DNA of 64,000 nt. It comes from Malacoraja senta. Lineage: Eukaryota. The notes under the pieces were generated by a model. It had not been told where the DNA came from. It worked only from the letters and a program-made list of their open reading frames with translations, and made no database searches. Position 1 is the first letter of the stretch. Each line of letters opens with the position of its first letter. A program made the translations under genes and the position numbers. Below are positions 1 to 55,340 of the stretch, one piece after another. The stretch lies in NCBI GenBank assembly GCA_038087875.1, contig CM075990.1, positions 17,920,001 through 17,984,000 of the forward strand, written 5' to 3'.

Positions 1-583
1 AGAATGCGCTGACCGCCGACATCAACACCTCCGGGCTGTGGGACTGCGGAGCGACCAGCGGTGCCGACTCCAACATCGGGAGCCTCGTGGCTCCAAATCG
101 TGGCTCCAAATCGGCGCGGCCCTGTCGGCTTCAGGTGACATCGACTCCGCTGGGAGGACTCTCCCGACGGCCAGGAACATTGGGCCTCCGTAGAGGCAAC
201 TGTGGTGGCCTCGATGGGCCTGACTCTGGGGAGAACTGGGTTGGGGACTGGACATTGTGCCTTCCCCCACAGTGGTGGTCATTGTGGGGGGATGATTTCT
301 GTGTGCTGTGCCTGTTAGTCCGTGTACAAGATGGCGGTCGGAGGGGAGAGTGGACGCTGGCGCGAATTGGTCGCCGCTGCTCTCTCCTCAAATTGTGTTT
401 CTTATTTTCTTTTGGTGCTCTTGAAATTGAATTCTGTCCTTGATTTGTGTACTGTCGTGTTTTTATATTTAATTTATTCCGATTATGTGTTTTGTATTTT
501 TTTTGTTGTGATTCTATGCATTGTAAGGTGTCCTTGGGTTTTAGAAAGGCGCCAGTAAATAAAATGATTATTATTATTATTAT
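1..583 (+). mobile_element. GC-rich non-autonomous retroposon, 3' part (copy A), L2-like tail
   Basis: GC-rich body, shared stem-loop at 263-292, tail gtaaggtgtccttggg...aaggcgcc..AATAAA followed by (ATT)n. Confidence 0.55.
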
Positions 584-660
584 AAAGATCGCCAGTCAGA
601 AAAGCATCATTCCACCACTACAATCTTGTGGTCAATAGGTAAACCAGATTTGAATCAAAA

Positions 661-1100
661 CTACCTAGTCACCCAGTGGATTTTATGCAACTTAATCTTA
701 TGGATTAGCCTATCATGAGGGACATTGTAATATGCCTTACTCAAGTCCATGTAGGGAACATCCACTACTTTATCCTCATCAATCACCTTCATCTCCCCCT
801 CAAAAATCTCAATCAAATTTGTCAGACATGACCTGCCACAGGCAAAGCCATGCTGATTGTTCCTACTTAGCCCATTCTCTTCCAAATGAAAGCAAGTCCG
901 CTTGAGCTGTAAATAACCTCCCTACCACTGAAGTGAGGCTCACTAGCTTATAATTCCCTTATTCATCCATGTTTCCCTTCTTAAATAATGGTGTAACATT
1001 GGCTTCTCTCCTGATTTCCAGGACCTCATCTGTGGCTAGATAGCATATAAAGATTCAAGTCAAAGCCCCAGCAATCTCCTCTTTGCCTCTCTCAATAACC
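661..1100 (-). mobile_element. CR1 LINE ORF2 fragment
   Basis: Degenerate QHGF..GRSCLTNLIE..D.SKAY RT motifs (ORF 661-885). Confidence 0.85.
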
Positions 1101-1781
1101 TGACGTGGGCAAGTGGCAGAGTCAGAGTGGTTGATGGGAATGCGGGGAAAATAAAAATAGGATTAATTACAAATAGATGCTTGATGGTCAGGTAGAAATA
1201 TAAATAAAATAATTCCTGCTCCTATTTAAGTGTGTTCTTGCGTATTCTCGTGCTTATTAGTAGGTGTACATTTGGTGGGTTAAAGTTCTTGCTGTGCTGT
1301 ATGACACATATAAATCCAGATAAGTAGTTCACATTTGATTACAGCAGTTACCATATTTTTATTTCCTTGAATTATGTACATTTAAAAAATTCTGTTCAGG
1401 AAACCCTACGTGTGAGGGGAGGTTGCGTTCCTAGAAAATGGCAAAAACTGTCATGATTTTCCCTAATGCAAAGCTGTCAACTGCACATGCGTCAAGAAAT
1501 GAGAATTGAAAACATTTTGTTTAGATATATTGATTTTTTATCACAAATTCCACGAGATTGTATTTTATTCATTACCTCTCATTTTTGAACAGTAATGTAT
1601 AATCTCTAAGGCAAACATCTTTAACCTTAACCCAGCTGTTACTTGGGATCGCCTGTATGTTGAAAATACGAGATTAAGAGATAAATATTTTTTCTGCTAT
1701 TAAATAATCTGCCACATAACATGAAGTAAGATATCTTAGTACAGCCGCCTAAAAATGAGATATCACCATCTGAATACTCAC

Positions 1782-1972
1782 CCACGCCACGGTCATCCAT
1801 CGTAGGATTATCAATCCAGCGCTGGGCTTGCTCAATTTTCCCCTCCAAATTCACTGCTGCTTTTACAGGCCGACTATTGGCCACTGCACGATTTGTTTTC
1901 GTCTGCAGGTTCTGCAATGTGGTTGCAATTTGCTTGGACAAAGCACGGGCTTCAGGGGTGTCACCTTTTCCT
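1782..1972 (-). CDS. vcl: vinculin exon 11 (191 nt)
   Basis: cag|A GGA AAA...GTG G|gtgagt; [64 protein letters not shown]. Confidence 0.97.
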
Positions 1973-4784: not shown

Positions 4785-6184
4785 TATAACCATATAACCA
4801 TTACAGCACGGAAACAGGCCATCTCGGCCCTTCAAGTCCGTGCCGATTTTTTTTCTCCCTTCTTTCTTCTTACTTCCCCCTAGTCCCATCTACCTTCACT
4901 CAGACCATATCCCTCCATTCCTTTGCCGTCCATATACCCATCCAATCTATTTATAAAGGATAAAATCGAACCTGCCTCCACCACTTCCACTGGAAGCTCA
5001 TTCCACACAGCTACCACTCTCTGAGTAAAGAAATTCCCCCTAATGTTACCCCTGAACCTCTGTCCCTTAATTCTCAAGTCATGTCCCCTTGTTTGAATCT
5101 TCCCTACTCTCAATGGGAAAAGCTTATCCATGTCAACCCTGTCTAACCCGCTCATAATTTTAAAGACCTCTATCAAGTCCCCTCTTAACCTTCTGCGCTC
5201 CAAAGAATAAAGACCTAACTTGTTCAACCTTTCTCTGTAACTTAGTTGCTGAAACCCAGGCAACATTCCAGTAAATCTCCTCTGTACTCTCTCTATTTTG
5301 TTGACATCCTTCCTATAATTAGGCGACCAAAATTGTACTCCATACTCCAGAATTGGCCTCACCAATGCCTTGTACAATTTTAACATTACATCCCAACTTC
5401 TATATTCAATGCTCTGATTTATAAAGGCCAGCACACCAAAAGCTTTCTTTACCACCCTATCTACATGAGATTCCACCTTCAGGGAACTATGCACAGTTAT
5501 TCCTAGATCCCTCTGTTCAACTGCATTCCTCAATTCGCTACCATTTACCATGTACGTCCTATTTTGATTTGTCCTGCCGAGATGTAGCACCTCACATTTA
5601 TCAGCATTAAACTCCATCTGCCATCTTTCAGCCCACTCTTCCAAATGGTCTAAATCTCTCTGTAGACTTTGAAAACCTACTTCATTATCCACAACACCAC
5701 CTATCTTAGTATCATCTGCATACTTACTAATCCAATTTTCCACACCATCATCCAGATCATTGATGTACATGACCAACAACAGTGGACCCAACACAGACCC
5801 CTGAGGTACCCCACTAGTCACCGGCCTCCAACCTGACAAACAGCCATCCACCATTACTCTCTGGCATCTCCCATTCAGCCACTGTTGAATCCATCTTGCT
5901 ACTCCACCATTAATACCCAACAATTGAATCTTCTTAACCAACCTTCCATGAGGAACCTTGTCAAAGGCCTTACTGAAGTCCATATAGACAACATCCACTG
6001 CTTTACCCTCATCAATTTCCCTAGTAACCTCTTTGAAAAATTCAAGAAGATTAGTCAAACATGACCTTCCAGGCACAAATCCATGTTGACTGTTCCTAAT
6101 CAGACCCTGCTTATCCAGATGCTTATATATATTATCTCTAAGTATCCTTTCCATTAATTTGCCCACCACTGACGTCAAACTAAC
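4785..6184 (-). mobile_element. young 5'-truncated CR1 LINE with an open 432-codon RT/C-terminal ORF (4880-6178)
   Basis: QHGF, GVPQGSVLGP, YADD and C-terminal CR1 motifs with no stops; 3' tail of short (ATATGGTT)-type repeats. Confidence 0.95.
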
Positions 6185-6256
6185 TCAGCTTTAAAACATC
6201 TTTATCTGCATATGAACTTTCAGATGAAGCTGAATCCGAGAATATAAGAATATTAC

Positions 6257-8387: not shown

Positions 8388-8574
8388 TATTGTAATATAT
8401 ATTTTTGAATTATTTATATCAATTTATTTTCAATACATAGATACATAGAAAATAGGTGCAGGAGTAGCCAGCTGGCCCATTCAACGTGATCATGGCTGAT
8501 CATCCACAACAGTACCCCGTTCCTGCTTTCTCCCCATATCCCTTAATTCCGCTAGCCCAAGTAGCTCTATATAA

Positions 8575-8955
8575 AGGGGGGGGGGAGAAGGGGGGGGGAG
8601 AAGTGAGGGGGGAGAAGGGGGGGAGAGGAAGAAGGGGGGAGAGGAAGAAGGGGGGGAGAGGAAGAAGGGGGGAGAGGAAGAAGGGGGGAGAGGAAGAAGG
8701 GGGGGAGAGGAAGAAGGGGGGAGAGGAAGAAGGGGGGAGAGGAAGAAGGGGGGGAGAGGAAGAAGGGGGGGAGAGGAAGAAGGGGGGAGAGGAAGAAGGG
8801 GGGGAGAGGAAGAAGGGGGGAGAGGAAGAAGGGGGGGAGAGGAAGAAGGGGGGGAGAGGAAGAAGGGGGGGAGAGGAAGAAGGGGGGGAGAGGAAGAAGG
8901 GGGGGAGAGGAAGAAGGGGGGAGAGGAAGAAGGGGGGGAGGGAGAAGAAGGAGTG
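8575..8955 (+). repeat. polypurine minisatellite, about (GAGGAAGAAGGGGGGA)n
   Basis: About 380 nt of almost pure A/G with variable G-run length; explains spurious ORFs 8486-8968 and 8567-9004. Confidence 0.95.
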
Positions 8956-8984
8956 GAGAAACTTTTAAGAAGCCAGACAACTTT

Positions 8985-26914: not shown

Positions 26915-27196
26915 CGCAGGACCATTCATCGCCCGGCATGGGCTTCAATATCGGGAACCTTGATCGCCTTGACGCAGCGGTTAGACTGCCTGACCGCAGG
27001 AGAAGAAGCAAGGAAGAGATAAGACATTTTTTACCTTTCATCGCAGTGAGGAGGTGCCTGGAGGAGAGTCACTGTGCTGGATGTTTATGTTAAATTTATG
27101 CAATTGTGTGTTTTGTTTGCTTTTTATTGTTATGACTGTATGGTAATGACATTTTGATCAAATTTGTTTTGAATGACAAATAAATTCAATTCAATT
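26915..27196 (+). mobile_element. GC-rich non-autonomous retroposon 3' part (copy B)
   Basis: Shared stem-loop at 27037-27081; tail TGACAAATAAA(TTCAA)n. Confidence 0.5.
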
Positions 27197-27665: not shown

Positions 27666-29039
27666 AATAACCTCTACATATCCACTCTATCCAGACTTTT
27701 CATTATATGGTAGCTTTGAATGAGGTCCCCCCTCATTCTTCTAAACACGAGCACTTACAAGCCCAGTGACATTAAACGCTCATCATACGTTAACCCAATC
27801 AACCCCGGGATCAACCTCCTCTGGACCCATCCTCAGATATGGGGCCAAAAACTGCTCAAAATACCCAAATGTGGTCTGACAAGTGCCTCATAAAGCCTCA
27901 GCATTATATCCCCAATTTTATACTCTAGTCCTCTTGAAATAAATGCTAACATTGCATTTGGCTTCTTTACTATCGATTCAACTTGCAAATTAATCTTTTA
28001 GGAATCTTGCACCAGCACTCCCAAGTCCCTTTGTACCTCCAAATTCTGAATCCTCTCCGCATTTAGAAAATAGTTTACACCTTCATTCCAACTACCAAAA
28101 TGCACGACTCCACAATTTGCTACACTCTATTCCATCTGCCACTTTAGTCCACTCTCCCAATCTGTAATTTCTTTATAACTCATTATCACTTCTCCGGCAT
28201 CATTTCCAGCAGTTCAATGTCCACTCTTGCCTCTCTCTCTTACTCATTATATATATAAAGGAACTTTTGCTATCATCTTTTTTTTATTATGGCTAGCTTA
28301 CCTTCAGATTTCATCTTTTCCCCCTTATTGCATTTTTAATTAATCTCTGTTGATTTTTAAAAGCTTCTCGATCCTCTAGCTTCCCACTAATCCTTGCGAC
28401 ATTATGTGCCTTCCCTTTTAGTTTTATGCTGTCTTTGACTTCCCTCATCAGCCACGGTTGCCTCATTCTCCTTTTAGAATCATTCTTCCTGTTCGGGCTA
28501 AAAATATCCTACCTCTTCCAAAGTATTCCCAGAAACCCCTGCCATTGCTGCTCCACATTCATTCCTACTAAGATCCCTTTCCAATCAACTTTAGCCAGCT
28601 CCGCCCTCATCACCTTTACTCAACATTCATACCTACACATCAATTTCATCTTCTCCTTTTCAAACGGCAGATTGAATTTTATCATATTATGGTCTCTACC
28701 TCCTTGGGGTTCATTTACCTTAAGCTCCCTAATAACATCTCGTTCGTTATTCAATACCAAATCCAGAATTGCCTTTTCCCCAGTAGGTTAGAATACAAGC
28801 TGCTCTAAGAAGCGTTCTCGTTGGCACTCTATAAATTCCTTCTCGCACTAACAAACATGCCTGCTGGGGTATTGGTTCCCCTCCAGTTAAGGTGCAACTC
28901 ATCTATCTGCCTCAGAAGAAATCCCAATTGTCCAGAAATCTAAATTCCTGCCCCCTTCTCAAACTCATCAGCCACACATTCATCTCCCCCTACCTTCCTG
29001 TTCCTACCCTCACTTGTACATTGCACTGGAAACGATCCA

Positions 29040-32000
29040 AGTCAAGTTCAAGTGAGTTTATTGTCATGTGTTCCTGATAGAACAATGAAATTCTTGCTTT
29101 GCTTCAGCACAACAGAACATAGTAGGCATTGACTACAAAACAGATCAGTGTGTTCATATACCATTCTATAAGTATATACACACATGAATAAATAAACTGA
29201 TAAAGTGCAAATAACAGTTAATGGGCTATTAAAGTTCAGAGTTTTGTCCGAGCTGATACTTAATCCGAACTTAATAGCCTGATGGCTGTGGGGAAGTAGC
29301 TATTCCTGAACCTGGTCGTTGCAGTCTTCAGGCTCCTGTACCTTCTACCTGAAGGTAGTATGGAGATGGCGGACGTTCAGGAGTGGGCGCCGTTTTTACG
29401 GGCGCCTGCCTGCAGTCCGTCCTCTAACCCTTTTTATTTTCTATAACTTGTATTTGGAGGTCTATTCTTTCTATGTGGGGGGGTGGGTGGGGGGGAAACT
29501 GTTTTAACCCCAGTTCTACCTGGTCGGAGATGCGGTTTTCCTCCAAATCGCATCTTCGCTCTCCCCATGCGGCCTTCTATCGGGCTGGAGCGGCGTTTCC
29601 TGCCGGGACCACAGCTTCGGCGGCACAGCGCTGGGACACCAACAAGGAGCGGGCGTTGCCTTGCCGGGTCGCCGCTCCGGAGTGCTGTGACCGCCGACCA
29701 CCAACATCGAGGAGCTGCGGTCTGCGGGCGGGCGGCGCTGGGTGGAAAACACCGCGGAGTCAGAGTCGGAGCTCCAACCGGCGCGGCCTGAAGACTACGG
29801 GCGTCGCAGTCTCCGGGGAGGGAGCAGCCGCTCCAGACACTTCCAAGCTGCTGAGGACTTTCCACCCGATGCCGGTGTTCCAGCTTCCCAGCAGGTGGGC
29901 GTACAACATCGGGGTGCCGTTGCGGCGACTGACTGCGGAGGCCTCAAACTGGCCCCGACCTCGGGTGGACTAGGAGGAGGACTGGACATTTTGGTGCCTT
30001 TCACTAACAGTGGAGAGTGTCGACTCTGCTGTGGGGGGATGTTTGTGTTGAATTTCTTATCGTGTGTTGTGTCTTTTTTTCTACCTCTTTTTTTTTCATT
30101 TATATGGATAATTTTCTCCGTAAATCACTTTGGCTTCTTTGATTGAAATTGATCGAAAATGCAATATAAATAAATTTACTTTACTTTACTTATGAGTGTG
30201 TGGCCAGGATGGTGTGGGTCCTTGATGATACTGCCAGCCTTTTTGAGGCAGCGACTGCGATAGATCCCCTCGATGGAAGGGAGGTCAGAGCCGATGATGG
30301 ACTGGGCAGTGTTTACTACTTTTTGTAGTCTTTTTCTCTCCAGGGCGCTCAAGTTGCCGAACCAAGCCACGATGCAACCGGTCAGCATGCTCTCTACTGT
30401 GCACCTGTAGAAGTTAGAGAGAGTCCTCCTTGACAAACCGACTTTCCGTAATCTTCTCAGGAAGTAGAGGCGCTGATGTGCTTTCTTAATAATGGCATCA
30501 GTGTTCTCGGACCAGGAAAGATCTTCAGAGATGTGCACGGCCAGGAATTTGAAGCTCTTGACCCTTTCAACCATCGACCCATTTATATAAACGGGACTGT
30601 GGGTCCCCATCCTACTCCTTCCAAAGTCCACAATCAGTTCCTTGGTTTTGCTGGTGTTGAGGGCCAGGTTATTGTGCTGGACAGTTGCTCGATCTCTCTT
30701 CTATACTCTGACTCATCCCCATCAGTGATACATCCCACAATAGTGGTGTCGTCAGCAAACTTGATGATGGAGTTCGCACTATGACCGGCTACGCAGTCAT
30801 GAGTATAGAGTACAGCAGGGGGCTGAGCACGCAGCCTTAAGGTGCTCCCGTGCTGCTTGTTATCGAGTCTGACACATTTCCACCGATACGAACAGACTGT
30901 GGTCTGAGAGTGAGGAAGTCGAGGATCCAATTGCAGAGGGATGCGCAGAGACCCAGTTCTGCGAGTTTGGTAACCAGCTTGGAGGGGATGATAGTATTAA
31001 ATGCCGAGCTGTAATCGATGAATAACAGCCTGACATATGAGTTTTTGTTGTCCAAGTGGTCCAGAGCGGAGTGGAGGGCTAGCGAGATCGCATCCACCGT
31101 TGATCTGTTGTGGCGGTAAGCGTACTGCAGTGGGTCCAGGTTTTTGTCGAGGTAGGAGTTGATCTGCGCCATGATCAACCTCTCAAAGCACTTCATCACC
31201 ACAGGCGTTAGTGCCACAGGCCAATAGTCATTGAGGCACGTCACCTTACTCTTCTTGGGCACTGGTATAATTGATGCCCTTTTGAAGCAGGTGGGAACCT
31301 CAGACCTCAGAAGTGAGAGGTTGAAAATGTCTGTAAAAACTCCAGCCAGTTGTTCCGCACAGGTTTTTGGAACACGACCAGGTATACCATCAGGTCCAGG
31401 CACTTTTCGAGGGTTCACCCCTCTGAAGGATTTCCTGACGTCGGCCTCTGTGACTGAGACTGAAATACCATCACAGCGAATGGGGGCTCGGGAAGGCACA
31501 TCGGTGGTCTCCCTATCAAAGCGTGCGTAAAACGCATTAAGCTCATCAGGGAGTGATGTTTCGCCGACATTCGAGCTGCCTCCTGATTTCGCCTTATAAG
31601 AGGTGATTGCATTCAGGCCCTGCCACAGCCGCCGAACATCTGTCTCTTCCTCCAGTTTGGAGCAGGTCCCTTTTGATGGCCTTACCAAGGTCGTATCTGG
31701 ACTTCTTGTTGACCACTGTATCATGCCCGGTGTCTGGTCTTCAGGAGAGAGCGGATCTCAAAGTTCATCCAAGGTTTCTGATTGGGAAACACTCGGAAGG
31801 TTTTTGTAGGGATGCAGTCCGCCACACATTTCTTAATGAAATCTGTAACGACTGTGGCATATTCGTTCAAGTCCGTTGCCGAGTCCTTGAACATTGCCCA
31901 GTCTACAGACTCCAAACAGTCCTGTAGTTGTTCCTCTGCCTCCCCCGACCAGCTCTGTACTGTCCTCACCTCTGGGGGTGCGCTCTTTAATTGCTGCCTG

Positions 32001-32422
32001 TAGGCAGGAAGAAGCAGCACCGCGGTATGGTCGGATATACCGAAGTGAGGGCGAGTGATAGAGCGATAGGCATTCTTGATGGTGGTGTAGCAGTGGTCGA
32101 GGGTGTTTGGTCCTCTGGTGCAGCAGGAGACATGTTGGTGAAAGTTAGGGAGTGATTTCTTTAGGTTTGCCTTATTGAAGTCCCCAGCAATGGTGGTAAA
32201 TGCCTCGGGGTGAGACGTCTGGTGTTTGTTGACCACGGTGTGCAGCTCCTCCAGTGCCAGACGGACGTCTGCCTGGGGTGGGATGTACACCGCGGTCAGG
32301 ATGATGGAGATGAATTCCCTCGGAAGGTAGAAGGGACTGCACTTCACCGCCAGGTGTTCGAGGTGTGGAGAGCAGGAGTTGGACAGGACTGTCACGTCTG
32401 AGCACCATGCAGAGTTGACCAT
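29040..32422 (-). mobile_element. Rex1/Babar-type LINE (APE endonuclease + RT), 5'-truncated, lightly frameshifted
   Basis: AVKCSPFYLPREF..AVYIPP, AGDFN, SDH (APE); PVALT..MKCFERL, DYSSAFNTI, KFADD (RT); tail TGACAATAAA..(CTTGA)n; GATCCA duplicated at 29034-29039 and 32423-32428. Confidence 0.9.
29365..30190 (+). mobile_element. GC-rich non-autonomous retroposon, apparently full length (copy C), nested in the Rex element
   Basis: Begins AGATGGCGG; stem-loop at 30000-30039; ends AATAAA(TTTAC)n; the Rex sequence resumes on both sides. Confidence 0.7.
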
Positions 32423-33012
32423 GATCCAGAGATTACTACACTGGAGGTTCTGCTTTACAGCTTTTTTCCTAGCTCCCTATACTCATATTGCAGAACTTCC
32501 TTCCTTTTCCAACTTATGTCATTTGTGCCAACATGCAACATCCAAGACGTCCTGGACCCTGGCACCAGGAAGGACGCACACCATCCTGGAGTCTCAATTG
32601 CTGCCACATAATCTATCTGCACCGCCATCTAAAAGGTCACCTACCACTATGGCTGTGCTTGATATTACCTTTCCCTGCTGAGCATCAGTGCCAGCCTCGG
32701 TGCTCCAGCCCTGCCTGGTACCGCTGCTCAACCTTGATAGGTCACCCCTTCCCGGCAGTATTCAAAAGAGTGTACCCGCTTTCAAGGGGGATGGTCACCT
32801 GCACTCTATGTCTATTTCCCTTCTTCGTGGCTACCCACCTTCTCTCTTCCTGGACCTTGGGCATTGTAACCCTGCTATACATCTTGTCTAAGAAGCTCTC
32901 ATTCTCCTGGATTGTCCTGAGGAAATCCAGTTGCACTTCCATTTCCCTAATGTGGTCTGAAAGGAGCTGCACCTGGACACAATACCCACAGGTGTAGCCA
33001 TCAGGGACACCA

Positions 33013-39123: not shown

Positions 39124-39140
39124 TATAAATTCATACTTAC

Positions 39141-40930: not shown

Positions 40931-43900
40931 TGTAGCGGGCGCCTGCTGGCGCACGCAGGTATCGAACCCAGCGTTCGGAAGCGGTCACGTGACTCGGGAA
41001 GGGCTGCTGTTTTCGCGCGGTTTTGCTTTCGCGCCACAGTTGTGTTGCTGACCACCGTTGTGATCAGACGTGTTTGCAGAGACCAGTATGCCAAGGAGCG
41101 ATTGTGTTAATAAATTAGTTTAGAAAACTTGGTTGTCGTCTTTGCATCCGCCAAATTGGTGACCCCGGCCTGTCTAGCCATCGTTAGACAAGAGATCATG
41201 CAGGAGGACTACGTCCCTGCAGAATCGGCCGGCACGAGGCAGGGCTCACCGGGCTTCAAGCTACCTTCTTTTTGGCCAGATCAACCTCAGGTGTGGTTCG
41301 CCCACGTTGAGGCACAGTTCCATCTGCATCGAATCATTGCGGATGACACAATGTACTTCCATGTGGTAGGAGCTCTGCCACAGGACTGTGCCTCGAGGCT
41401 GTTGCCGTACATTAGAGACCCACCGACGATCGCAAAGTACGAAGGTTTGAAGGCCCTGCTGTTACATACCTTCGGTCTCAGCCGTAGCGAAAGGGCGGCG
41501 AAGATCCTGCACATGGACAGTGTCGGCGATCAGCGTCCATCCACCATCATGGCAAAGATGCTGGTCCTGATGGCCGGGCATCGCCCGTGTCTGCTTTTCG
41601 AACAGGCGTTCTTGGAGCAGATGCCAGACGAGGTCCGTTTTCAGCAATCGCCAGCACCTCGCGGAGAGAGCCGACAAGTTGTGGACCCACAGACGGCAGG
41701 ACGTTTGTTCTTTCACCCGCCCCACTGCCACGGCGTGGGTGCAACCGAGACGACATCGGGACGAAGGTCAGGATCCGCCCAGCACCGAAGAAGCATCGCT
41801 GCCGGAGGTGTACAGCCGACGACGTTGGTGCTACTACCATCTACGTTACGGTGTGGAAGACAGAAGATGCCGAAGCCCCTGTTCGTTTCAGGGAAATGCC
41901 TTGGCCGATCGCCCATAGAGGCGAACACGATCAGTCCAGCCACCTTTTCCTTGTCGACTCCGGTGCCATAGCCAGCATCCTGCCACCGACCGCCCGAGAT
42001 ACCCGTGTCGGTAAGGTAGGACCCGTCCTCTCGGCCGTTAACGGGAGCGACATTCGCACTTACGGTACGCGGACCCTGGACTAAAATTTCGACTCCCGCC
42101 CGTATAGTTGGAAGTTCAGCGTTGCTGACGTCGCCCAGCCGATATTGGGGGCCGATTTCTTGCGCTCGTTCTCCCTGTTAGTCGATGTGCGGGGCGAGCG
42201 AATGGTTCAGTTGTCGGACCTGTGCCCTGACAAGCCACGCCCCAACAGCAGCTCGACGAGCTAGCTGAGATCCAACAACCTTTCGCAGCCCTTCTCACTG
42301 AATTCCCAGTGTTGCTCACACCCCGGTTTGACGGGGCCTCGCCCCGTCATGGCGTGGTCCACCACATTCCCACCGAGGGCCCACTGGTTCATGCCCGCGC
42401 TCGCCACCTCCCGCCCGATAAACTGCGCATCGCACGAGACGAGTTCCAGCTTATGGAACACATGGGGATTGTCCGGCAGTCGGATAGTCCTTGGGCTTCC
42501 CCTCTGCATATGGTGCCCAAAGCGTCCGGGGGCTGGAGACCTTGCGGTGATTACAGGCGTCTAGACGCCGTAACCACAGCAGATCGGTACCCAGTCCCGA
42601 AACATTCAAGATTTCTCGGCTCATTTGGAGGGCGCCGCCTTCTTCTCGAAGGTCGACCTTGTCCGCGGGTATAATCAGATTCCAGTCCATCCCGACGACG
42701 TCCCTAAGACGGCCACTATCACCTCTTTCGGCCTTTTTGAATGGCTAAGAATGCCTTTTGGCCTGAAGAACGCCGCTGAAGCTTTCCAAAGGCAAATGGA
42801 TCAGGTCGGGCGGGGTTTGCCGTTCATATTCATCTATCTCGATGATATTCTGGTGGCCAGGAGCTCGCAGGTTGAACACGTTAAACACCTCCGCCTGCTC
42901 TTCGAACGGCTACGTAAGCACAGGTTGGTGATCAACCCCCGAAGTGCCAGTTTAGATTGTGCTCCATCTCCTTTTTAGGTCACAACATAACCTGCCATGG
43001 TGCACAACCGCTGCCTGAGAAGGTCGACGCAATCCGTCGCTTCCCGAGGCCACTATCCATCAAGGGCCTGCAGGAATTCATCGGAATGGTCAATTTCTAC
43101 CACCGATTCGTCCCGTCGGCAGCCGCCATCATGCGGCCATTGTTCCAATGTCTGGCAGGCAAGCCTAAGGACCTGGTTTGGTCCAAGGAGGCGGGGATAG
43201 CTTTCGAGGGGGCTAAGGCCGCGCTGGCCAATGCCAGCATGCTGGTACACCCCAGGGCATCGGCCCTCACCGTGGACGCGTCGGACGTCGCGGTGGGTGC
43301 TGTCCTCGAACAGCGGGTAGGTAACCGCTGGCATTTTTCAGCAGGCAGCTGCGGGCCCCGGAGATCAAGTACAGCGCTTTCGATCAGGAGCCCCTCGCGC
43401 TTTACCTAGCGATCCGACATTTCCGTTATTTCCTAGAGGGCCGCGCATTTACCGCATTCACGGACCACAAGCCGCTCACGTTCGCTTTAAATAAGGTGTC
43501 CTGTCTGCCAGGTCTGCCAGGCAACAGCGGCACCTCGCCTACATATCCGAGTTCACTTCTAACATTCGGCATGTGGCGGGGAAGCTGAACGTTGTGGCCG
43601 ACGCGCTATCTCATTTGGCAGTCTCTGAGGTTTCCGCTTTAAACCTAGGTGTGGATTATGCGGAGCTGGCAGCAGCCCAACGCCGGCATGGAGGATTACC
43701 GCAATGCTGGCTTGAGGCGCCTTGTGGTGCCACGGGCGTGCGAGTCATTTGCGATGTCTCAACAGGTAAAGCCCGCCCGATCGTCCCGATTGCCTGAAGG
43801 CGTCGGATTTTCAACACCATCCACAGCCTAGCTCACCCGTCCATCCGCGCCACATCTGCCCTGGTTGCTTCCAAGTTCGTCTGGCACGGGTTACGAAAGC

Positions 43901-44440
43901 AGGTCGCAGCATGGGCCCGCGCTTGAATCCCCTGTCAGACTTCCAAGGTGCAGAGGCATGTGCGCCCGCCCGTGCAGGATTTTGCTGTTCCAGACGGCAG
44001 GTTCCTGCACATCCATGTTGACCTGGTGGGTCCCTTGCCTTGTTCGCTTGGGGCCACTCACTCACTATCATGGATAGGTAAACCAGGTGGGCAGAGGCAA
44101 TACCGTTAACAGAAACCTCCGCTGAGGCTTGTGCACGCGCTATTGTCTCCAATTGGATCACTCGTGTCGGGGTCCCTTCTTATATTACTACCGATCGGGG
44201 GGCCCAGTTCCCGTCCTCCCTGTGGTGTGGTATGGCGCAGCTGTACGGCAGCTGCACCAGACCACCGCGTATCATCCGGAGTCGAACGGTTTCACAGACA
44301 CCTTAAGTCGGCGTTGAAGGCCCAGCTCACTGGCCCCGATTGGGTTGACCAGTTGCCCTGGGTTCTCCTTGGCATCAGAACTACGCCTAAGGAAGACCTC
44401 GACGCCTCCTCGGCCGAGCTGGTTTATGGCTCGGTTTTGC
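40931..44440 (+). mobile_element. Ty3/Gypsy LTR retrotransposon, CsRn1-like lineage; 5' LTR + gag-pol, frameshifted, no 3' LTR
   Basis: TG...CA LTR about 40931-41153 with AATAAA; PBS TGGTGACCCCG at 41157-41167; gag KLPSFWPDQPQVWF; CYYH-x9-C-x3-C; protease FLVDSGA; RT SPWASPLHMVPK, MPFGLKNA, YLDD; RNase H TVDAS; integrase HVDLVGPLP. Confidence 0.92.
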
Positions 44441-45190
44441 AGGTACTACACTTGTCGCTTTACCTCCCCCCTCAACTTCATTCAAGGACCCAAGCAGTCG
44501 TTCCAGGTGCGACAGAGGATCACCTGCATCTCCTCCAACTTCAGGGGGTGGCTGAAGAAGGGTTTCGGCCCGAAACGTTGCCTATTTCCTTCGCTCCATA
44601 GATGCTGCTGCACCCACTGAGTTTCTCCATCACTTTTGTCTACCTTCGATTTTCCAGCATCTGCAGTTCCTTCTTAAACAGTGCAGATGCTGGTTTATGC
44701 CAAAGATAGATACAAAATGTTGGACTAACTCAGCGGGCCAGGCAGCATCTCTGGAGAAAATGGAGAGATGTTATGGGTCAGGACCCTTCTTCAGATTCAT
44801 CTGATTTGATCCGATCGGATAGCATGCAAAACAAAACTTTTCACTGTATTTCAATATGGGTGACAATATTAAACCTAAAATATTAAACCCTCTTGGTTTT
44901 CTTACCCATATCATGAGAAAAAGATCCACCCTCTCAGTACCTCTCATAATCTTATATACTTCTATGCTCAGCCTCCTTTGCTCCAGGGAAAACAAGTCCA
45001 GCCTATCCATAACTAAAAGACACAGCAGGACAGGCAGCATCTCTGGAGAACATGGATAGGTGACCTTGGTCTGAAGAAGGGTCCCAACGCGAAATGTCAC
45101 CTATCCACGTGCTCCAGAGATGCTGTCTGACTCACTAGGTTACTGAGCACTTTGTGTCTTTTGTGGTAAAGCAGCATCTGTGGTTCCTTA
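44441..45190. mobile_element. Penelope-like element fragments (pre-GIY-YIG coding remnant and pseudo-LTRs in both orientations)
   Basis: YTCRFTSPLNFIQGPKQSFQVRQRITCISSN at 44445-44540; hammerhead-like motifs at 44552-44579 (+), 44771-44794 (-, degenerate) and 45071-45098 (+). Confidence 0.75.
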
Positions 45191-45575
45191 CTTTCTATCC
45201 ATAACTAATGAATTCCAAATGTTTGAGGGGGAACAAGAAAACAGTAGTGCCATTTAAGAGGCATTTAGATAGGCACGTGGATATGCTGGAAATAGAAGAA
45301 TATCACATGCAGACAGAGGAGATTAGTTTATCCTGGCATCATGTTTGGCACAGGCAATAAAGGCTGAAGGGCCTGTTACTCTGCTAGACTGTTTAATGTT
45401 TTAAACCTGTTATACGAGAATTTTGCCCGAACAGTGTGACCCATAGCGCTATTTTTAAACGCCATAGCCTTGTGGCCGGTGGCGTTATATTTAAACCACA
45501 TAGACCTGCAGCCGACAGCGCTTTATTGAAATCCCCACGCGCTGCCAACAGTGCTCTGTTTAAACCTTTGCTCGC

Positions 45576-46627: not shown

Positions 46628-47250
46628 CAAAGTCAAAAGTCAAAGTTGATTTTATTCGTCACATGCACCCGAAGGTGCAGTGAAATGAATTTGCTAGCAG
46701 CGATACACTTAAAAAGAACACACAATACACAATAAGATTTAACACAAACATCCACCACAGCATTTGTCACTGTAGTGGAAGGCAATAAAGTTCATCCAGT
46801 CCTCCTCCCTTGTTCACCCGTGGGCGGGGCCATAAACCCTCCGTAGTCGCTGCTAGTTGGCCCGATGTACAGGCCCTCTTGTCGGGATGATCAAAACTCC
46901 GACGTCGGGACAATAGGAGCACTCCTCCCGGCGACCCACGGCAAGGGTTCGCCCGCTCCACGATGGAAAAGTCCACGCTTCGCCTGCTGCTAATGCTCCG
47001 GGCCCGACTCCGGGAAAGGCAGCTCTAATCCATGCTGTTACACCGCAAGGGAGGCGACATGGAATAAGTCGCCCCTCCGCCGAGGTCACCGGAAACGGTT
47101 CCCCCATTTCCTCCCCCCCCCCCACCACCTCCCACAAAAGACACACCCAGAGACACCTAAAATAACACTAGACACACCAATTTTTTTTTTTAATCGAAAT
47201 AATGAACACGCTGCTGGCAGGGCAGCCGACTCGTAGCGCCCCCACCGACC
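46628..47250 (-). mobile_element. GC-rich non-autonomous retroposon (copy D), Rex-like tail
   Basis: 5' GGGGCGCT..GGC.GCCCTGCCAGC.GCGTGTT shared with 49848-49886; stem-loop at 46751-46779; tail GTGACGAATAAA..(TTTGACT)n. Confidence 0.7.
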
Positions 47251-47254
47251 AAAT

Positions 47255-47640
47255 GACGTGCTGGAGTAACTCAGCATGTCAAGCAGAATCTCTGGAAACA
47301 TTGACAGATGACGTTTCAGGTCAGGACCATTCTTCAGATTGAATGTGGGGTGGGGGGGGTGGAAAGAGGAAAGAACACTGGTAAAGTTATTGCCATCAAC
47401 AAGTTCTACATGGGAGCAGGAGGCAGCACTGATGCAGTCATCGATGTAGCAGAGAAAGAGTTAGGGGGTGGTGCTGGTGTGGAGCAGGACAGTTCAACGT
47501 AGCCAACAAAAAGGTACGCAAGTGCCCATGGCTACATCTCTATAGAAGAAAGTCAGAGGAGTCAAAAGTAGTTGGTGTGGGCGAGGATGAATTTTGCCAG
47601 GTGGACGAGAATGTTAGTTGAGGGAAATTGATTGACACAC
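47255..47640 (-). mobile_element. Penelope-like RT remnant plus pseudo-LTR
   Basis: Minus strand LFLCYIDDCISAASCS (Penelope-type YIDD); hammerhead-like motif at 47310-47337. Confidence 0.7.
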
Positions 47641-49835
47641 ATTCCTGGGTTGTATCATCATGAAGGGAACAGTGGAGATCTAAATGCAACTCGCTTCCTA
47701 CACAGAACATCTCTAAATAATTTCCCGTGAAGGTAAGAGAGAAGCAGCAGCCAGAAGCAGCGAGAGCTAGTATTGGCTGGAAGTAGGTGTCAGAGGGAAA
47801 GAAGATTTAAAAAGAGCGCCAAAGGCCCGCATTCAAGTTATTCGCTAATTAGCCCTAAAGTAGTTGATTAGGTAACAGATAAAGATGTGCAGCTGTAGGG
47901 GAGCAGCCTTGTTGAGGTGAAGTGGCTTGGTGAATAAAGTGTGAGTCTTTGGCTTGAGAGTCTACAGTGAGGAGGCTACACTTGATCGAAATTTGTGATT
48001 TTTGTTCACTAAAGAAATGGCAGGCAAGTTGGTGCAGTATGTTTCCTGCAAGATGTGGGAAGTCAGGGACACCGCTGGAGTTTCTGGAAACTACACCTGC
48101 AGAAATTGTGTCCAGGTGCAACTCCTGAATGAACGTGTTGGGGAACTGGAGAAGCAGCTGGATGACCTCAAGGCCATCCAGGAAAATGAGTTTCCTGGAC
48201 AGGACCTACAGTGAGGTTGTCACGCCAAGGATACAGGAAGAGCAAAGGTGGGTGACTGTGAGAAAGGGGAGTAAACATTGAGTGCAGGAGACCCCGGTGG
48301 CTGTGCCTAATGAAAACAGGTACACCCTGTTGGGAGCTGTCGGGACAGACGACGCTTCTAGTCCGAGCGGCGGACAGGTCGGTGGCTCCAATCCCAGCAA
48401 TAAGACTCGACCGGCGAGACCGACTTCGGGCAGAGCCATAGTGGTGGGTGACTCAATTGTCCGAGGTGCGGACAGGAGATTCTGTGGCGGCAGGCGAGAC
48501 TCGAGGATGGTCTGTTGCCTCCCTGGTGCCAGGGTTCAAGTCACGGACCGACTTCAGAACATCCTCGAGGGGGAAAGTGAACAGCCGGAAGTAGTTGTGC
48601 ACGTGGGGAACGTCGGGAAGAAGAGGAAGGAGGTTCTGCTATGTGAGTTGAGAGAGTTAGGAAGAAGAGTGAAAAGCAGGACTTCTAGGGTAGTTATCTC
48701 TGGATTGCTTTCTGTACCTCGTGCTGGTGAGGGCAGGAACAGGGAGATAGGGGATCTGAATGTGTGGCTGGGGAGCTGGTGCAGGGAGCAGGGATTTAGA
48801 TTTATAGACCACTGGGATCTCTTCTGGGGTAGGGTTGACCTGTACAAAAGGGACGGGTTTCACCTTATCTGGAGATGGACCAACGTTCTGGCAGGCAGCT
48901 TTGCTAGTGCTACACGTGTGGGTTTAAACTAAATAGCAGGGGGAGGGGTTGACAAATTGGGAGTATAAAGATGGAGTTAAAGGGGAAATGAGTACAGGAA
49001 AAGTTACAAAAGACTCCCAAATTAATGGGAAAGTTCGAGAAGGGATAAGAGAGTAAGGCCAGGGCCAAAAGTGACCGGTGTGAGAGGGGAGGTGAATACC
49101 GAAGTTAGTGTTGTATGAATGCGTGAAGTATAAGAAATAAAGTGGATGAGCTTGAGGCTCAGTTAGAAATTGGCAAGTATGTTGTAGGAATTACAGAGAC
49201 ATGGCTGCAAGAGGACCAGGGCTGGGAACTGAATAGTTAGGGGTATACGTCCTATCAAAAAGACAGACAGGTGGGCAGAGGGGGTGGGGTAGCTCTATTG
49301 GTAAAGAATTAAATTCAGTCCCTTGCAAGAGGTGACATAAAATCAGGAGATGTAGTCAGTATGGATAGAACTGAGAACTCCTAATGGGAGTTATCTACAG
49401 GCCCCCAAACAATAGCCTGGATATAGGGTGCAAATTGAAGTTAAAATTGGCATGTTGCAAAGGTAATGCTACGGTGGTTATGGGAGATTTCAACATACAG
49501 GTCGACTGGGAGAATCAGGTTGGTACTGGACCCCAAGAAAGCGAGTTTGTGGAGTGCATCTGAGATGGATTCTTAGAGCTGCTTGTACTGGAGCCTACTA
49601 TGGAGAAGGCAATTCTGGGTTTAGTGTTGTGTCATGATCCAGATTTGATGAGGGAACTCAAGGTAAAGGAGCCATTAGGAGGTAGGGACCATAATATAAA
49701 TTTCTAATCTACAATTTGAGAGGGTGAAATTGGAAGTGTCAGTATTACAGTTAAGCAAAGGTGACTATGGAGGCATGAGGGAGGAGCTGGCCAAAGTTGA
49801 CTGGAAAGAGACCCTAGCAGGGATGACAGTGTAAC

Positions 49836-50733
49836 ATCGGTGTCGGAGGGGGCGCTGCAAGCCGGCAGCCCTGCCAGCTGCGTGTTAGTTTTTTCAATTA
49901 AAAAAATAATAATTTAGGGTGTTTTAATGTGTGTTTTTAATATCTCTGTGTGTTGTGTGGGGGGTGGTGTGGGGGGGGGTAAGGGGGGCTTTGGTCGCCT
50001 CCTCCACAGAGAGGCGACTTTTTTCCATGTCACCTCCCCCATGGCCCAACATTGAGGATTGGGCGGGCCTTTCCCAGAGAAGCGCCCAGGGAGCCGGCGA
50101 GCCCTCGCCGGGGGTCACCGGAGGGGAGCGCTCCATTCGCTGGCCCGCGGCAGCCTGAAGCCGCACTCTGCGGAACTCCAGCTGGCGCGGCTTCCGCAGC
50201 CTGGGATCCCTCGTTGGGGACCCGGGAGAAGAAGCTCCGACCGCTGGCCCGCGGCCTACTACCGCGGGCGCGGCGGAGACTTACCATCAGGAGCGGGGTC
50301 CCTCGCTGGGGACCCCTAGAGAGGAGCTCTGACCGCTGGCCCTGCCGTCCGCGGTGCTTCTGGCTGAGACACTGCGAGAACTTTAAATCTTCGAACGCCG
50401 GCTTGCGGCCTACACCAACCTGAAGCCGCGGTCTACGGTGGGGCAGCACCGATTCAGGACTTACCTGGACTTTATCTGGACTTTGCCTTGTCTGAACTTC
50501 TGGACGCCCGCAGCGACGGCTGCAGAGGGTTGAGGTCCCGACCACGGGGGAAAATGGAGGAGGACTGGCCAAATTTTGTGCCTTTCACCACCGTGATGAA
50601 TGCTGTGGTGGATGTTTGTGTTCAACATTTTTATTGTGTTTTTGAGTGTTCTTTTTCATTGTACCGCTGCTGCAAATTCATTTCACTTGCACTTTATGTG
50701 CAAGTGACGAATAAAACTGATATTGATATTGAC
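49836..50733 (+). mobile_element. GC-rich non-autonomous retroposon, apparently full length (copy E)
   Basis: Same 5' block as copy D; stem-loop at 50584-50612; tail GTGACGAATAAA(CTGATATTGATATTGA); inserted into CR1 ORF2. Confidence 0.7.
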
Positions 50734-51339: not shown

Positions 51340-53009
51340 TCTATATTACTAAAAGTCTGATCTTGACCACTTCCTGTTGTTCTGTATATTGATTTTAGAA
51401 AAAACGCTGCCACTTACGGCTGTGATTTTTGGCCATCTTACTCCGAGTCCCCCTCCGCTGCGCAAGACAAGAGGATTTTTCCCATCGATTAAAAATAAGA
51501 GTTATTAGTGTTTAAAAAAATGTTGAGATTCTCTCTCCTGAAGGCCACGCCCCTTCCGGAGGGACTATAAAACCCGGAAGTGTTGAGTGCCTCAGTCAGT
51601 CTCTGCAAGATAGGGGAGCCAGAGGGTCACGTCTCTCAGTCTGAGCTGTGAATAACACTGAACACATGTCTACTAAACTGTGAGTGGTTTTACTGACCTG
51701 TCAGTGCCCTTAATGTGGTTTGAAAATATAGTTTGGAAATGCTCTAAAGCTGTGTTGCCTTTGGTTTGGAAATGCTAAAGCTGCGTTGCCTTTGGTTTGG
51801 AAATGCTAAAGCTGCGTTGCGTTTGGTTTGGAAATGATAAAGCTGCCTTGCCTATGGTTTGGAAATGCTAAAGTTGCCTTGCCTAGTTAAAGTTGCCTTG
51901 CCTAGTTAAAGTTGCCTTGCCTAGTTAAAGTTGCCTTGCCTAGTTAAAGTTGCCTTGCCTAGTTAAAGTTGCCTTGCCTAGTTAAAGTTGCCTTGCCTAG
52001 TTAAAAGTTGCCTTGCCTAGTTTAAGTTGCCTTGCCTAGTTAAAGTTGCCTTGCCTAGTTAAAGTTGCCTTGCTAGTTAAAGTTGCCTTGCCTAGTTAAA
52101 GTTGCCTTGCCCAGTTAAAGTTGCCTTGCCTAGTTAAAGTTGCCTTGCCTAGTTAAAGTTGCCTTGCCTAGTTAAAGTTGCCTTGCCTAGTTAAAGTTGC
52201 CTTGCCTAGTTAAAGTTGCCTTGCCTAGTTAAAGTTGCCTTGCCTAGTTAAAGTTGCCTTGCCTAGTTAAAGTTGCCTTGCCTTCTATATAATTAAAAGT
52301 CTAATCTTGACCACTTCCTGTTTGCGCTTTATATTGATTGTAGAAAAAAATGCTACCACGTACCGCTGTGATTTTTGGCCATCTTACTCAGTCCCCCTCT
52401 GCTCATCAGGTGCCGAGGATTTTTCCCATCAATGAAAAATAAGAGTTTAGTGTTTTAAAAAATGTTGAGATTCTCTCTCCTGTCAATCACGCCATGAAGG
52501 CCATGCCCCTTCTGGTGGGAGGCGGGGAGGGACTATAAAACCCAGAAGTGAGGGCGTGGCTCAGTCTCTGCAAAATAGAGGGAGAGGTCATCGACTTGCT
52601 GTCTTTAGTGGCCTTGCACCCTGCTTGACATGGTATGAAACTGCACTTGAATCTTGTGGCCTTGCACCCTGCTTGAAGTGGTAAGAAACTGCACTTGAAT
52701 TTGGTGGCCTTGCACCCTGCTTGAAATGGAATTTCAAGGAATAGCCGTGAGTCAACTGCCAGCCCACCAGCCGTGAGTGAGTGAGCTGCCAGCACAACAG
52801 ACTTGAGTGACTGAGCCGCAAGACCAAGAATCCATTCAGCCCACAATGTCCATACTAGCCCTCTGGAAACCAGTCCCTTCAGCCCACAACACCCATACTA
52901 GCGCTCCAGAAAGTCTCCCCCCCCCCCCCTCCACTGGCCACCAATATTGGAGTTGGGGGACCAGCCCTCCTGTGTGATGCTGTGACCCAACGGGTCCCAC
53001 TTGGTCTAG
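51340..53009 (+). mobile_element. non-autonomous Helitron with internal minisatellites
   Basis: Starts TCTATATTAC and ends GACCC-AAC-GGGTC hairpin...CTAG; inserted between A and T of the host CR1 (ttttccaa^tgttctata) with no TSD; second 5'-end copy at about 52284. Confidence 0.92.
51730..52283 (+). repeat. compound minisatellite: ~5 x 31-bp then ~21 x 19-bp (AAGTTGCCTTGCCTAGTTA)
   Basis: Directly visible tandem arrays inside the Helitron. Confidence 0.95.
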
Positions 53010-53800
53010 TGTTCTATAAATTCTGGATCAGTTCCAGTGGATTGGAAGGTAGCTAATGTTATCCCACTTTTTAAGAAAGGAGGGTTAGGGTTAGGGTTGG
53101 TGGTGGGGAAGATGCTGGAGTCAATTATTAAAGATAAAATAGCGGCACATTTGGATAACAGTAACAGGATCAGTCCAAATCAGGATGGATTTACCAAGGG
53201 AAAATCATGCTTGACTAATCTTCTGGAATTTTTTGAGGATGTAACTAAGAAAATGGACAAGGGAGAGCCAGTGGATGTAGTGTTCCTGGACTTTCAGAAA
53301 ACCTTTGATCAGGTCCCACATAGGAGATTAGTGGGCTGAATTAGAGCACATGGTATTGGGGATAGGGTACTGACATGGATAGAAAATTGGTTGGCAGACA
53401 TGAAACAAAGAGTAGGGGGTTAACTGGTCCCTTTCAGAATGGCAGGCAGTGACTAGTGGGGTACCGCAAGGCTCGGTGCTGGGACCGCAGCTATTTACAA
53501 TATACATTAATGATTTAGATGAAGGGATTAAAAATAACATTAGGAAATTTGCAGATGACACAAAGCTGGGTGGCAGTGTAAACTGTGAGGAAGATGCTAT
53601 GAGGATGCAGGATAACTTGGACAGGTTGAGTGAGTGGGCAGATGCATGGCAGATGCAGTTTAATGTGGATAAATGTGAGGTCATCCACTTTGGTGGCAAG
53701 AACAGGTAGGCAGATAATTATCTGGATGGTGTTAAGTTAGGAAAAGGGGAAGTACAACGAGATCTGGGTGTACTTATTCATCAGTCACTGAAAGTAAGCA

Positions 53801-53939
53801 GGTACACAAAAGTACTGGAGAAACTCAGCGGGTGCAGCAGCATCTATGGAGCGAAGGAAACAGGCAACGTTTCGGGCCGAAATCCTTCTTCAGACCGGGA
53901 ATACCTTCGATTTTCCAGCATCTGCAGTTCCTTCTTTAA
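53801..53939. mobile_element. Penelope-derived inverted pseudo-LTR insertion
   Basis: 15-bp target duplication CACTGAAAGTAAGCA (53786-53800, 53940-53954); same GGTACACAAAA start and 3' end as 16109-16296; minus-strand hammerhead-like motif at 53866-53893. Confidence 0.85.
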
Positions 53940-55154
53940 CACTGAAAGTAAGCATGCAGGTACAGCAGGCAGTGAAGAAAGCTAATGGCATGTTGGCCTT
54001 CATAACAAGAGGAGTTGAGTATAGGAGTGAACAGGTCCTTCTACAGTTGTACAGGGCCCTAGTGAGAGTACACCTGGAGTATTGTGTGAAGTTTTGGTCT
54101 CCAAGTTTGAGAAAGGACATTCTTGCTGTTGAGGGAGTGCAGCGTAGGTGCACAAGGTTAATTCCCGGGATGGCGGGACTATCATATGCTGAAAAGATGG
54201 ACCGACTTGGCTTGTATACTCTGGAATTTAGAAGGGTGAGAGGGGATCTTATTGAAACATAAGATTATTATGGGATTGGACACGCTAGAGGCAGGAAACG
54301 TACTCCCTATGTTGGGGGAGTCCAGAACCAGGGGCCACATTTTAAGATTAAGGGGTAGACCATTTAGAACGGAGATGATTAAAAACGTTTTCACTCAGAG
54401 GTGGAATTCTCTGCCTCAGAAGGCATTTGAGGCCAATTCTCTGGATGCTTTCAAGAAAGAGTTAGATAGAGCTCTGAAAGAAAGTGGAGTGAAGGGATAT
54501 GGAGAGAAGGCGGGAACAGGGCACTGATTGTAGATGATCAGCCATGATCAGTGAATGGTGGTGCTGGCTCGAAGGGCAAAAAGGTCTACTCCTGCACCGA
54601 TTGTCTAAAAGCCCAACATGTCCATACCAACCAAGATGGTCCCTTCCAGCTACTCCCACCTGCCTTTACATTGCCCACATTCTTCCAAACCTCTCTTCTC
54701 AATGTTCCTGTCATTTGGAATAATATTGAATACAAAAGTAGGAACATCATGATGAAGCTGTACAAGTTATTGGTTAAACTAAACTTGTAGTTTTGGTTGC
54801 TCAGCTAATGGAAGGAAGTAATTAAGTTAGAATAGGAGCAAAAGAGGTTCGCCAAGATGTTACCCGGACTTGCAGGCTTGAATTATAGGAAAAGGTTGAA
54901 CTTTTTTTGTTGGAATGCATGGGGCCAAGAGGTGAGTTTATTAAGATGTGCAGGAGTATTTAAGAGGCCTTTAGATTGGCATATGGATATGGTGAAAATG
55001 GCAAAATATGGATCACATGCAGGCAGGGGAGATTAGTTTAACTTGGTATCTTGTACGGCAAGGACATTGTGGGCCAAAAGACCTGCTCCTGCGCTATTAC
55101 AGCACCTCAACTACCTCCTCCAGCACAATAAATTTCATTCCCTATAGCAAATTA

Positions 55155-55340
55155 AACAAATTTGATTTTGATTCAATTTATTGTCATTGCACTTTTCAGT
55201 GCAACGAAATGGTTTAGCCTGCAGCCATAACATAGAATAAATAACAAAAACACACACTCAACACAGTTTAACATCCACCACAGTGAGTCCACCAGGCACC
55301 TCCTCACTGTGATGGAAGGCAAAAAGTCCCAAAGTCCAAA
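55155..55340 (-). mobile_element. 3' end of GC-rich retroposon family (copy F)
   Basis: 14-bp stem TCCATCACAGTGAG/CTCACTGTGGTGGA at 55274-55316; tail TGACAATAAA(TTGAATCAAAATCAAA). Confidence 0.6.

Follow-up and report, generated by a model that had tools for sequence, protein, structure and literature searches.

Gene-less insertions with a shared hairpin module and LINE-type tails in Malacoraja senta: probable non-autonomous retroposons

Introduction

What kind of mobile element leaves long, GC-rich copies that carry no gene, share a hairpin and end like two different long interspersed nuclear elements (LINEs)? The question is raised by a stretch of 64,000 nucleotides (nt) from Malacoraja senta (assembly GCA_038087875.1, contig CM075990.1, positions 17,920,001 to 17,984,000; hereafter the window), a piece of repeat-rich animal DNA carrying CR1, Rex-type and Gypsy-type elements. 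The original prediction, made from the letters alone, described six of its segments (c1 to c6) as one family of non-coding retroposons with a covarying stem-loop and with tails interchangeable between Rex and L2 partners. Our answer is that the elements are non-autonomous retroposons of the kind that lacks long terminal repeats (LTRs), in effect LINEs without genes, composed of a hairpin head, a middle part, a conserved module and a LINE tail, with at least one exchange of tails; we put the probability of this explanation as a whole at about 0.6. Much of the prediction is supported: the elements are non-autonomous, do not derive from transfer RNA (tRNA), contain a structured module in the middle and end in tails taken from LINEs, both Rex and L2. 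The single family, the covariation of the stem and the switch between partners are the parts that are weakened.

A module shared by six segments

All six segments are present where they were predicted and carry the module in the order GGACTGG..TGCCTT, hairpin, GGATG. It spans about 110-140 nt; its extent is as described, except that in c1, c3, c4 and c5 homology begins about 50 nt further 5', before GGACTGG. Profiles built with one copy left out recovered that copy in six of six cases, with the scores given in Table 1 (maximum in 20 block-shuffled 64-kb windows, 14.8 bits), and revealed no seventh copy in the window. A degenerate pattern for the module matched four of the six copies and nothing else in the window, and no match arose in any of 100 shuffles. 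The covariance model returned the same six copies, which it does by construction, having been built from them; apart from these, no score in the window or in ten LINE loci was higher than 15.8 bits. Together, the elements make up about 5% of the bases of the window.

LINEs for comparison came from the window and from animal retroelement loci contained in prokaryote assemblies (L017-L026, L041, L095-L098 and L100: Rex-, L2- and L1-type LINEs and a probable DIRS-type element). These loci are apparently host contamination, the Rex-type ones being taken as from fish. Five assemblies with animal LINE DNA yielded neither the module (one match, E 0.19) nor a homolog of c3 (best E 0.04 over 29 nt). 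In a viral contig collection the module patterns had no match, and relatives of the Rex protein or alignment were not found there. Sixteen matches of the module pattern in metagenome contigs are put down to chance: none shows BLAST likeness to the window, and all score at most 10.7 bits.

Table 1. Positions and make-up of the elements and of the LINE that harbours c3. Scores are those of the module profile built without the copy in question.
Element	Position	Strand	Length	Score (bits)	Description
c1A	1..325	+		26.0	Resembles c3 in body and module; 5' end beyond the window, own 3' tail not seen; hairpin 262-292
c1B	328..583	+	256 nt		Probable separate element; head with AAGATGGCG hairpin, then a T-rich stretch and an L2-type tail that ends in (ATT)n; lacks the module; AAGAT at both ends
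c2	26915..27196	+		35.4	5'-truncated; long-loop hairpin type like c6; degenerate Rex-like tail
c3	29364..30191	+	about 825 nt	68.2	Full-length, inside Rex-type LINE; AGATGGCG start shares host letters up to 29368; ATG repeated at 30192; order: head, T-run, G-run, GC body, module (hairpin 30000-30039), L2-type tail ending (TTTAC)n
c4	46628..47256	-	629 nt	84.9	Full-length; GGGGGCGC-type head; module hairpin about 46751-46779; Rex-type tail hairpin and AATAAA
c5	49837..50731	+	about 895 nt	82.2	Full-length, inside CR1 LINE; ACA on either side; internal repeat of about 90 nt in body; Rex-type tail
c6	55155..55340	-		30.9	Short 5'-truncated copy; long-loop module and Rex-type tail hairpin
Host LINE	29035..32476	-			Presumably Rex1/Babar-type; 5'-truncated, split by c3; RVT_1, ALKBH8_N and endonuclease matches

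Whole insertions without a protein

Three of the copies, c3, c4 and c5, are complete insertions without an open reading frame (ORF), not truncated LINE ends. For c3, reads and contigs in each of four sequencing runs pass directly from 29365 to 30192, where three letters can be assigned to either side, and the site is also empty in a paralog of the host LINE at 58446/58463. For c5, a CR1 paralog is contiguous at 11320/11323. We let these empty sites set the boundaries of c3 and c5; three-letter repeats by themselves prove little. Around c4 a target duplication was looked for in the flanks and none was found; c4 and c5 share their starting head although their flanks are unrelated. Ten open frames over c1, c3, c4 and c5 gave no Pfam match, whereas frames of the host LINE did. 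As predicted, there is no credible ORF and no sign of a tRNA origin: ARAGORN found no tRNA, and no A or B box motif was found.

The elements are regarded as non-autonomous because empty sites bound c3 and c5, no ORF is present, and c4 and c5 share a 5' head. The possibility named beforehand as fatal to the prediction, that the copies are ordinary 3' untranslated regions (UTRs) of LINEs with ORF2 upstream, does not hold for c3, c4 and c5, which show neither an upstream ORF2 nor the variable 5' ends of truncated LINEs; c2 and c6 are 5'-truncated, and c1A leaves the window.

A hairpin that keeps its pairing

One hairpin register folds in all six copies. Twelve stem pairs in six copies give 72 cells, of which 53 are Watson-Crick, 15 G-U, none A-C and four of other kinds. 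That is, 95.8% of the cells pair (68/72), whereas sliding the partners gives at most 69.8%. The loop ranges from about 3 to 20 nt and the copies are about 56% identical per column, yet pairing is kept. The predicted covariation is not significant on six copies: it stays unproven because a two-sided change is seen in a single pair of the 12, a count equalled in 162 of 500 shuffles. Changes are mostly one-sided, from C-G to U-G, with a further two-sided change outside the 12 pairs (G-C in c3, A-U in c2 and c6).

A better sign of selection at the RNA level than covariation is the asymmetry between G-U and A-C, because neutral transitions should yield the two equally. Counted as distinct stem states, there are nine G-U against zero A-C, for which p is about 0.004 (two-sided) if transitions are strand-symmetric and the states independent, which the G-U states are not fully. 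At 30003 and at 30006 most reads of relatives show C (at 30003, 230/259 of the depth in run X1, 334/374 in X3 and 134/141 in X8), which repairs both pairs broken in c3. Single-copy folds have modest z-scores (-2.2 to +0.7), and for the wider module z-scores do not tell sense from antisense folds apart. The proposed Rfam check gave no family, as none of the 12 matches listed reaches the gathering score and none lies on a module; identities as a ribozyme, a SECIS element or a small nuclear RNA (snRNA) were considered and had no Rfam support.

Tails of Rex and L2 type

Tails were compared with three Rex 3' ends of the window, a fourth from locus L018, and one L2 reference, locus L095, which we take to be L2-type from its C-terminus. 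Of the four Rex-like tails predicted, those of c4 (z 5.7-10.4 against the four references) and c5 (z 4.2-6.4) are solid, that of c6 is fair (z 2.3-4.9, and also 4.8 against the L2 tail), and that of c2 is weak (z 0.6-2.6, and missed by the tail pattern). The tails of c4, c5 and c6 fold, in the same register, into the tail hairpin that appears in the centroid structure of the host Rex LINE (z -2.4 for c6); the sequence of this Rex hairpin varies between families while its pairing is maintained. The host LINE itself ends in the reference Rex tail and is without the module.

The claim of two L2 tails survives in one copy. c3 joins the module to an L2-type tail, and a two-anchor pattern devised after seeing c3 and L095 matches c3 only in the window, the L095 end as well, and nothing in 100 shuffles; an earlier L2 tail pattern had no match in the five animal-LINE assemblies. 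The L2 tail credited to c1 probably belongs to a separate element, because AAGAT stands at either end of 328-583 and this stretch carries a AAGATGGCG head hairpin of its own. This stretch, c1B, is probably a second, module-less insertion related to c3 by its head, and a candidate for a minimal bipartite L2-tailed element; its tail scores z 3.5 against L095 and at most 1.0 against the four Rex tails. By alignment the tails of c1B and c3 are unlike (z -0.2). CR1 homology begins at 590, right of c1B, and none was found to its left. Both tail types occur, as a switch between Rex and L2 partners would require, and the case for such a switch depends on c3, since c1's L2 tail probably lies on a separate element.

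Subfamilies and their heads

Judged from their sequences, the six copies look like at least three subfamilies (c4/c5, c2/c6 and c3/c1A) rather than one family. c2 and c6 are 86% identical over 58 nt of the long-loop hairpin; the bodies of c3 and c1A align at z 10.2, and both have the C-G stem type. The 5' architecture ascribed to the three long copies is shared in part: the T-run, the G-run and the region after it recur, the latter being homologous (c3/c4 z 11.9, c4/c5 z 10.8), and the heads of c4 and c5 agree (z 15-20), whereas homology of the c3 head to these is not demonstrable (z 1.6 and 1.0). The c1B head folds at z -3.45 and resembles that of c3 (z 4.4). Runs of 4-6 T lie inside the first 200 nt of c3, c4 and c5, and T-runs of such length terminate polymerase III. 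The 12 sub-threshold Rfam matches listed include no 5S, 7SL or snRNA. The observed/expected ratio of CpG is 0.79-0.92 in c3-c5 versus 0.47 for the window.

A LINE 5'-UTR origin of the head is suggestive. Rex-type LINEs start with AAGATGGCG in L020 and AAAATGGCG in L021, followed by a GC block, a T-run and the ORF, a layout also seen in c1B and c3, whose heads contain the YY1-type AAGATGGCG. A YY1 site, CAAGATGGC, stands at the start of mammalian L1 (PMC5381506; here and below, papers are cited for the sections that bear on these elements). The c5 head matches the L020 5' end (L020:509) at z 7.7, equalled in none of 2000 shuffles, and the c4 head at z 3.8. The best match of the L020 head among 3654 window tiles is the c5 head, and the best of c5 among 3448 LINE tiles is the L020 head. 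With a head like a LINE 5' UTR, of polymerase II type, the elements would therefore stand nearer to bipartite non-autonomous LINEs than to short interspersed nuclear elements (SINEs).

In the 3' UTR of L020, directly after the ORF stop, there is a G-run ending in GGGGAAAAC that resembles the c3 G-run and is a possible clue to where the middle of the elements comes from. A best match of the c1B and c3 heads to L098 sits within coding-like sequence and was rejected as chance.

Spread and expression of relatives

Of the c5 words sampled, 25-28% occur in 14 DNA-type runs, which come from six organisms and seven studies; no run reaches half, and none listed as RNA is among them. Sequence like c3 is many-copy in X1, X3 and X8, read depth being no copy number. 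In the polyA run X23, from a different organism and read to about 6%, first mates on the minus strand exceed those on the plus strand in 17 of 17 element bins (1844 vs 197), compared with 0.78:1 in six host-LINE bins. Minus first mates usually mean sense RNA of the element, and under this convention the relatives are read about 9:1 in sense. On the promoter check that had been proposed, sense polyA reads exist, as polymerase II transcription would predict, but no start site emerged from them, the one pile listed being internal.

Neighbouring elements

The window holds an exon of the vinculin family at 34371-34520 (-) (Pfam Vinculin, E 4.5e-17), and the repeats around it are probably intronic. 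A GC-rich Gypsy-type LTR retrotransposon with several broken frames and matches to DUF7041 and RVT_1 lies at 41114-44600 (+). Young CR1 copies occur at 4785-6184 and 25249-26701, and at 14096-14741, 18175-18830 and 63128-63763, with pairs 94-96% identical and open reverse transcriptase frames of 434 and 448 codons; a CR1 ORF1 remnant at 48282-48932 (+) has a GDSL esterase-like domain below the Pfam cut-off. Other Rex-type 3' ends are at 40540-40800, 23230-23510 and 58168-58560, and the closest relatives of the host Rex LINE, among the matches listed, are mostly teleost LINE proteins. A family of short near-palindromic repeats, resembling miniature inverted-repeat transposable elements, has members at 16108-16295, 26790-26891, 33008-33146, 39025-39124, 44552-44795, 45069-45192, 47259-47373 and 53800-53898; c2 and c4 each adjoin one of them. 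Tandem arrays are found at 8570-8960 (purine-rich) and at 51731-52283.

How the elements may work

We suggest the following scheme. A short GC-rich hairpin head of LINE 5'-UTR type would act as an internal polymerase II promoter, with the YY1-type motif of c3 and c1B as a possible part of it; T-run, G-run, CpG-rich body, hairpin module, GT-rich spacer and LINE 3' tail follow. ORF2 of Rex1 or L2 would bind the RNA at the tail and copy it by target-primed reverse transcription, a process that would account for the 5' truncations of c2 and c6 and for microhomologies or duplications of 3 nt. The subfamilies could have acquired new heads and tails through template switches in the T-rich sequence on either side of the middle. 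The middle hairpin would be maintained as an RNA structure of the sense strand; we guess that it serves RNA stability or assembly of the ribonucleoprotein, and pausing of the enzyme at it may favour tail exchange just downstream. A bolder version, which we hold only tentatively and would bet against at present, sees in these elements what conserved-domain SINEs would be if polymerase II drove them: an undescribed class of cartilaginous fishes, whose CpG-rich middle with its functional RNA hairpin persists across subfamilies while LINE-derived promoter heads and LINE-derived tails (Rex1/L2) are exchanged.

Several results tell against this scheme. Formal covariation of the stem is lacking, and the sense bias in X23, from another organism and a small share of the run, can come from copies lying in 3' UTRs. 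As for the heads, profile searches between our copies and LINE heads failed in both directions; those of c3 and c1B reach at most z 1.8 against L020/L021 and share little beyond the motif, which c4 and c5 are without; and the c4 and c5 heads do not match the Rex head of L097 (324 and 843 of 2000 shuffles). As for the tails, plain alignment places that of c3 about equally with L095 (z 2.7) and Rex (up to 2.6), the pattern that separates them was made after the fact, and a search with the L095 tail through 5114 tiles lists neither c3 nor c1B among its best 14. Finally, the join of module and tail in c3 (bin 30114-30149) is uncovered by any read or contig at 80% likeness in all four runs.

Alternative explanations

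The same facts can be arranged around an autonomous LINE. G-run, body and module may be the long 3' UTR of a Rex (or L2) family of this lineage, c3-c5 being bipartite internal-deletion derivatives and c2, c6 and c1A perhaps 5'-truncated LINE ends. The L020 G-run right after the stop codon, the likeness of the heads to Rex 5' ends, the shallower depth of the c3 head bins than of its body bins, and the shortness of c2 and c6, which precludes excluding an ORF upstream, all fit. We nevertheless consider this rather unlikely: the window Rex 3' ends and loci L017-L026 are without the module (best outside score 15.8 bits), as are the five assemblies with such LINEs; a CpG-rich 3' UTR of 700 nt is unlike the short AT-rich ones seen in the LINE loci; and the L2 tail of c3 is by itself left unexplained. 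That tail could instead be an accident. If all module elements depend on Rex, the L2 tails of c1 and c3 would be one-off chimeras, produced by a second insertion and a deletion or by a single template switch, and there would be no interchangeable tails. The separable element at the end of c1, the difference between the c1B and c3 tails and the uncovered c3 junction make this a real possibility, albeit with the odds against it. On the other side, the whole of c3 lies between the host halves, and its (TTTAC)n end directly adjoins the ATG repeat; the separate head of c3, similar to the one on L2-tailed c1B, and the C-G stem type that c3 and c1A share and every Rex-tailed copy lacks suggest a separate L2-linked lineage.

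Two further alternatives concern the hairpin and the promoter. The hairpin may be an inherited inverted repeat without RNA function, as chance-level covariation, the modest single folds and a G/T-rich arm that accepts C and T alike would allow; its persistence across differing loops and diverged copies, the 15 G-U cells against no A-C and the source-like reads that repair the stem make us think this improbable. Polymerase III SINEs with a decayed or unusual head, or with an external promoter, are more improbable still. The mosaic of head, body and tail and the exchange of tails are typical of SINEs (PMC5499810, PMC11481361), but c3 and c5 exceed 700 nt, tRNA, boxes and small-RNA families are missing as described above, the T-runs come early, and the heads do not look decayed, because they fold well and keep their CpG.

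Comparison with known systems

No description of this family was found in the literature, nor any of bipartite Rex1 elements, most subscription journals and Repbase Reports lying outside the search; the sections consulted of PMC3747384, PMC5753468, PMC6274825 and PMC5381603 do not describe it. Because the repeat is so abundant, it probably sits in Dfam or Repbase under an automatic name. An abundant repeat otherwise labelled by its tail, as Rex or L2, or as unknown would gain a structure. If the bolder version above is true, the elements, given their share of the window and the sense transcription of relatives, might contribute CpG islands and polyadenylation signals to these genomes on a large scale. 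It is an open question why short retroposons keep their conserved middles when tails are exchanged, and these elements lend themselves to asking it: their domain is a plain hairpin, accessible to mutation in retrotransposition assays.

SINEs, as defined in SINEBase (PMC3531059), are shorter than 700 bp, have an internal polymerase III promoter in a head derived from tRNA, 5S or 7SL RNA, and carry the tail of a LINE partner. The present elements are non-autonomous with a partner-LINE tail; their heads show no tRNA, box motif or small-RNA family and contain early T4-T6 runs, and c3 (about 825 nt) and c5 (about 895 nt) are too long, whereas c4 (629 nt) is not. SINEs with highly conserved domains (HCD-SINEs: CORE, V, Deu and Meta; CmiSINE/SacSINE1 of cartilaginous fish, PMC5499810; bivalve ones with four LINE partners, PMC11481361) likewise keep a middle while heads and LINE tails are exchanged, so that tRNA SINEs, those of cartilaginous fish included, are known to swap tails around a conserved middle. 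Compared by description only, our elements differ in having no tRNA, 5S or 7SL head and no A/B box, in being longer, and in T-runs precluding polymerase III. SINE2-5_NV of Nematostella, which the table of PMC3747384 pairs with Rex1-24_NV as its single Rex1 case, is also non-autonomous with a Rex1 tail, but tRNA-headed and cnidarian. SVA and LAVA (PMC5753468) are long, GC-rich, composite, non-coding and mobilised by a LINE in trans; unlike the present elements they depend on L1, carry poly(A) and are confined to primates, and no sequence relation is claimed.

Polymerase II transcribes SVA and LAVA, and it probably does so for the closest parallel, the bipartite non-autonomous LINEs. Those treated by Kojima 2018 (RTESINE, WALLSI3, Bov-A, RIME, NARTc, Vingi derivatives and R2 SIDEs; PMC5786205) combine a LINE-type 5' end and a LINE tail without a protein, with polymerase II transcription expected and tail exchange known, and in the sections used derive from RTE, Ingi, Vingi and R2 only. 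Here the tails are of Rex1 and L2 type, and a middle of 450-700 nt, common to elements with differing heads and tails, stands between head and tail; it was not found in any LINE examined (the window, the foreign LINE loci and five assemblies, the organism's own LINE set being outside the scope). Homology to a LINE 3' end is present (c4 and c5 against Rex, z 4.2-10.4). For homology to the 5' end of the same LINE, the likeness of the c5 and c4 heads to L020 is to be set beside the negative profile and L097 searches, all made with LINE heads from other organisms. If the head is a LINE promoter, ORF-less non-autonomous LINEs would extend past the four groups of Kojima 2018 to Rex1 and L2. Membership in either class is not established; the elements are a variant of a known parasitic strategy, each ingredient of which has a precedent; in the way they work they resemble bipartite LINE derivatives, and in the way they evolve, mosaic SINEs.

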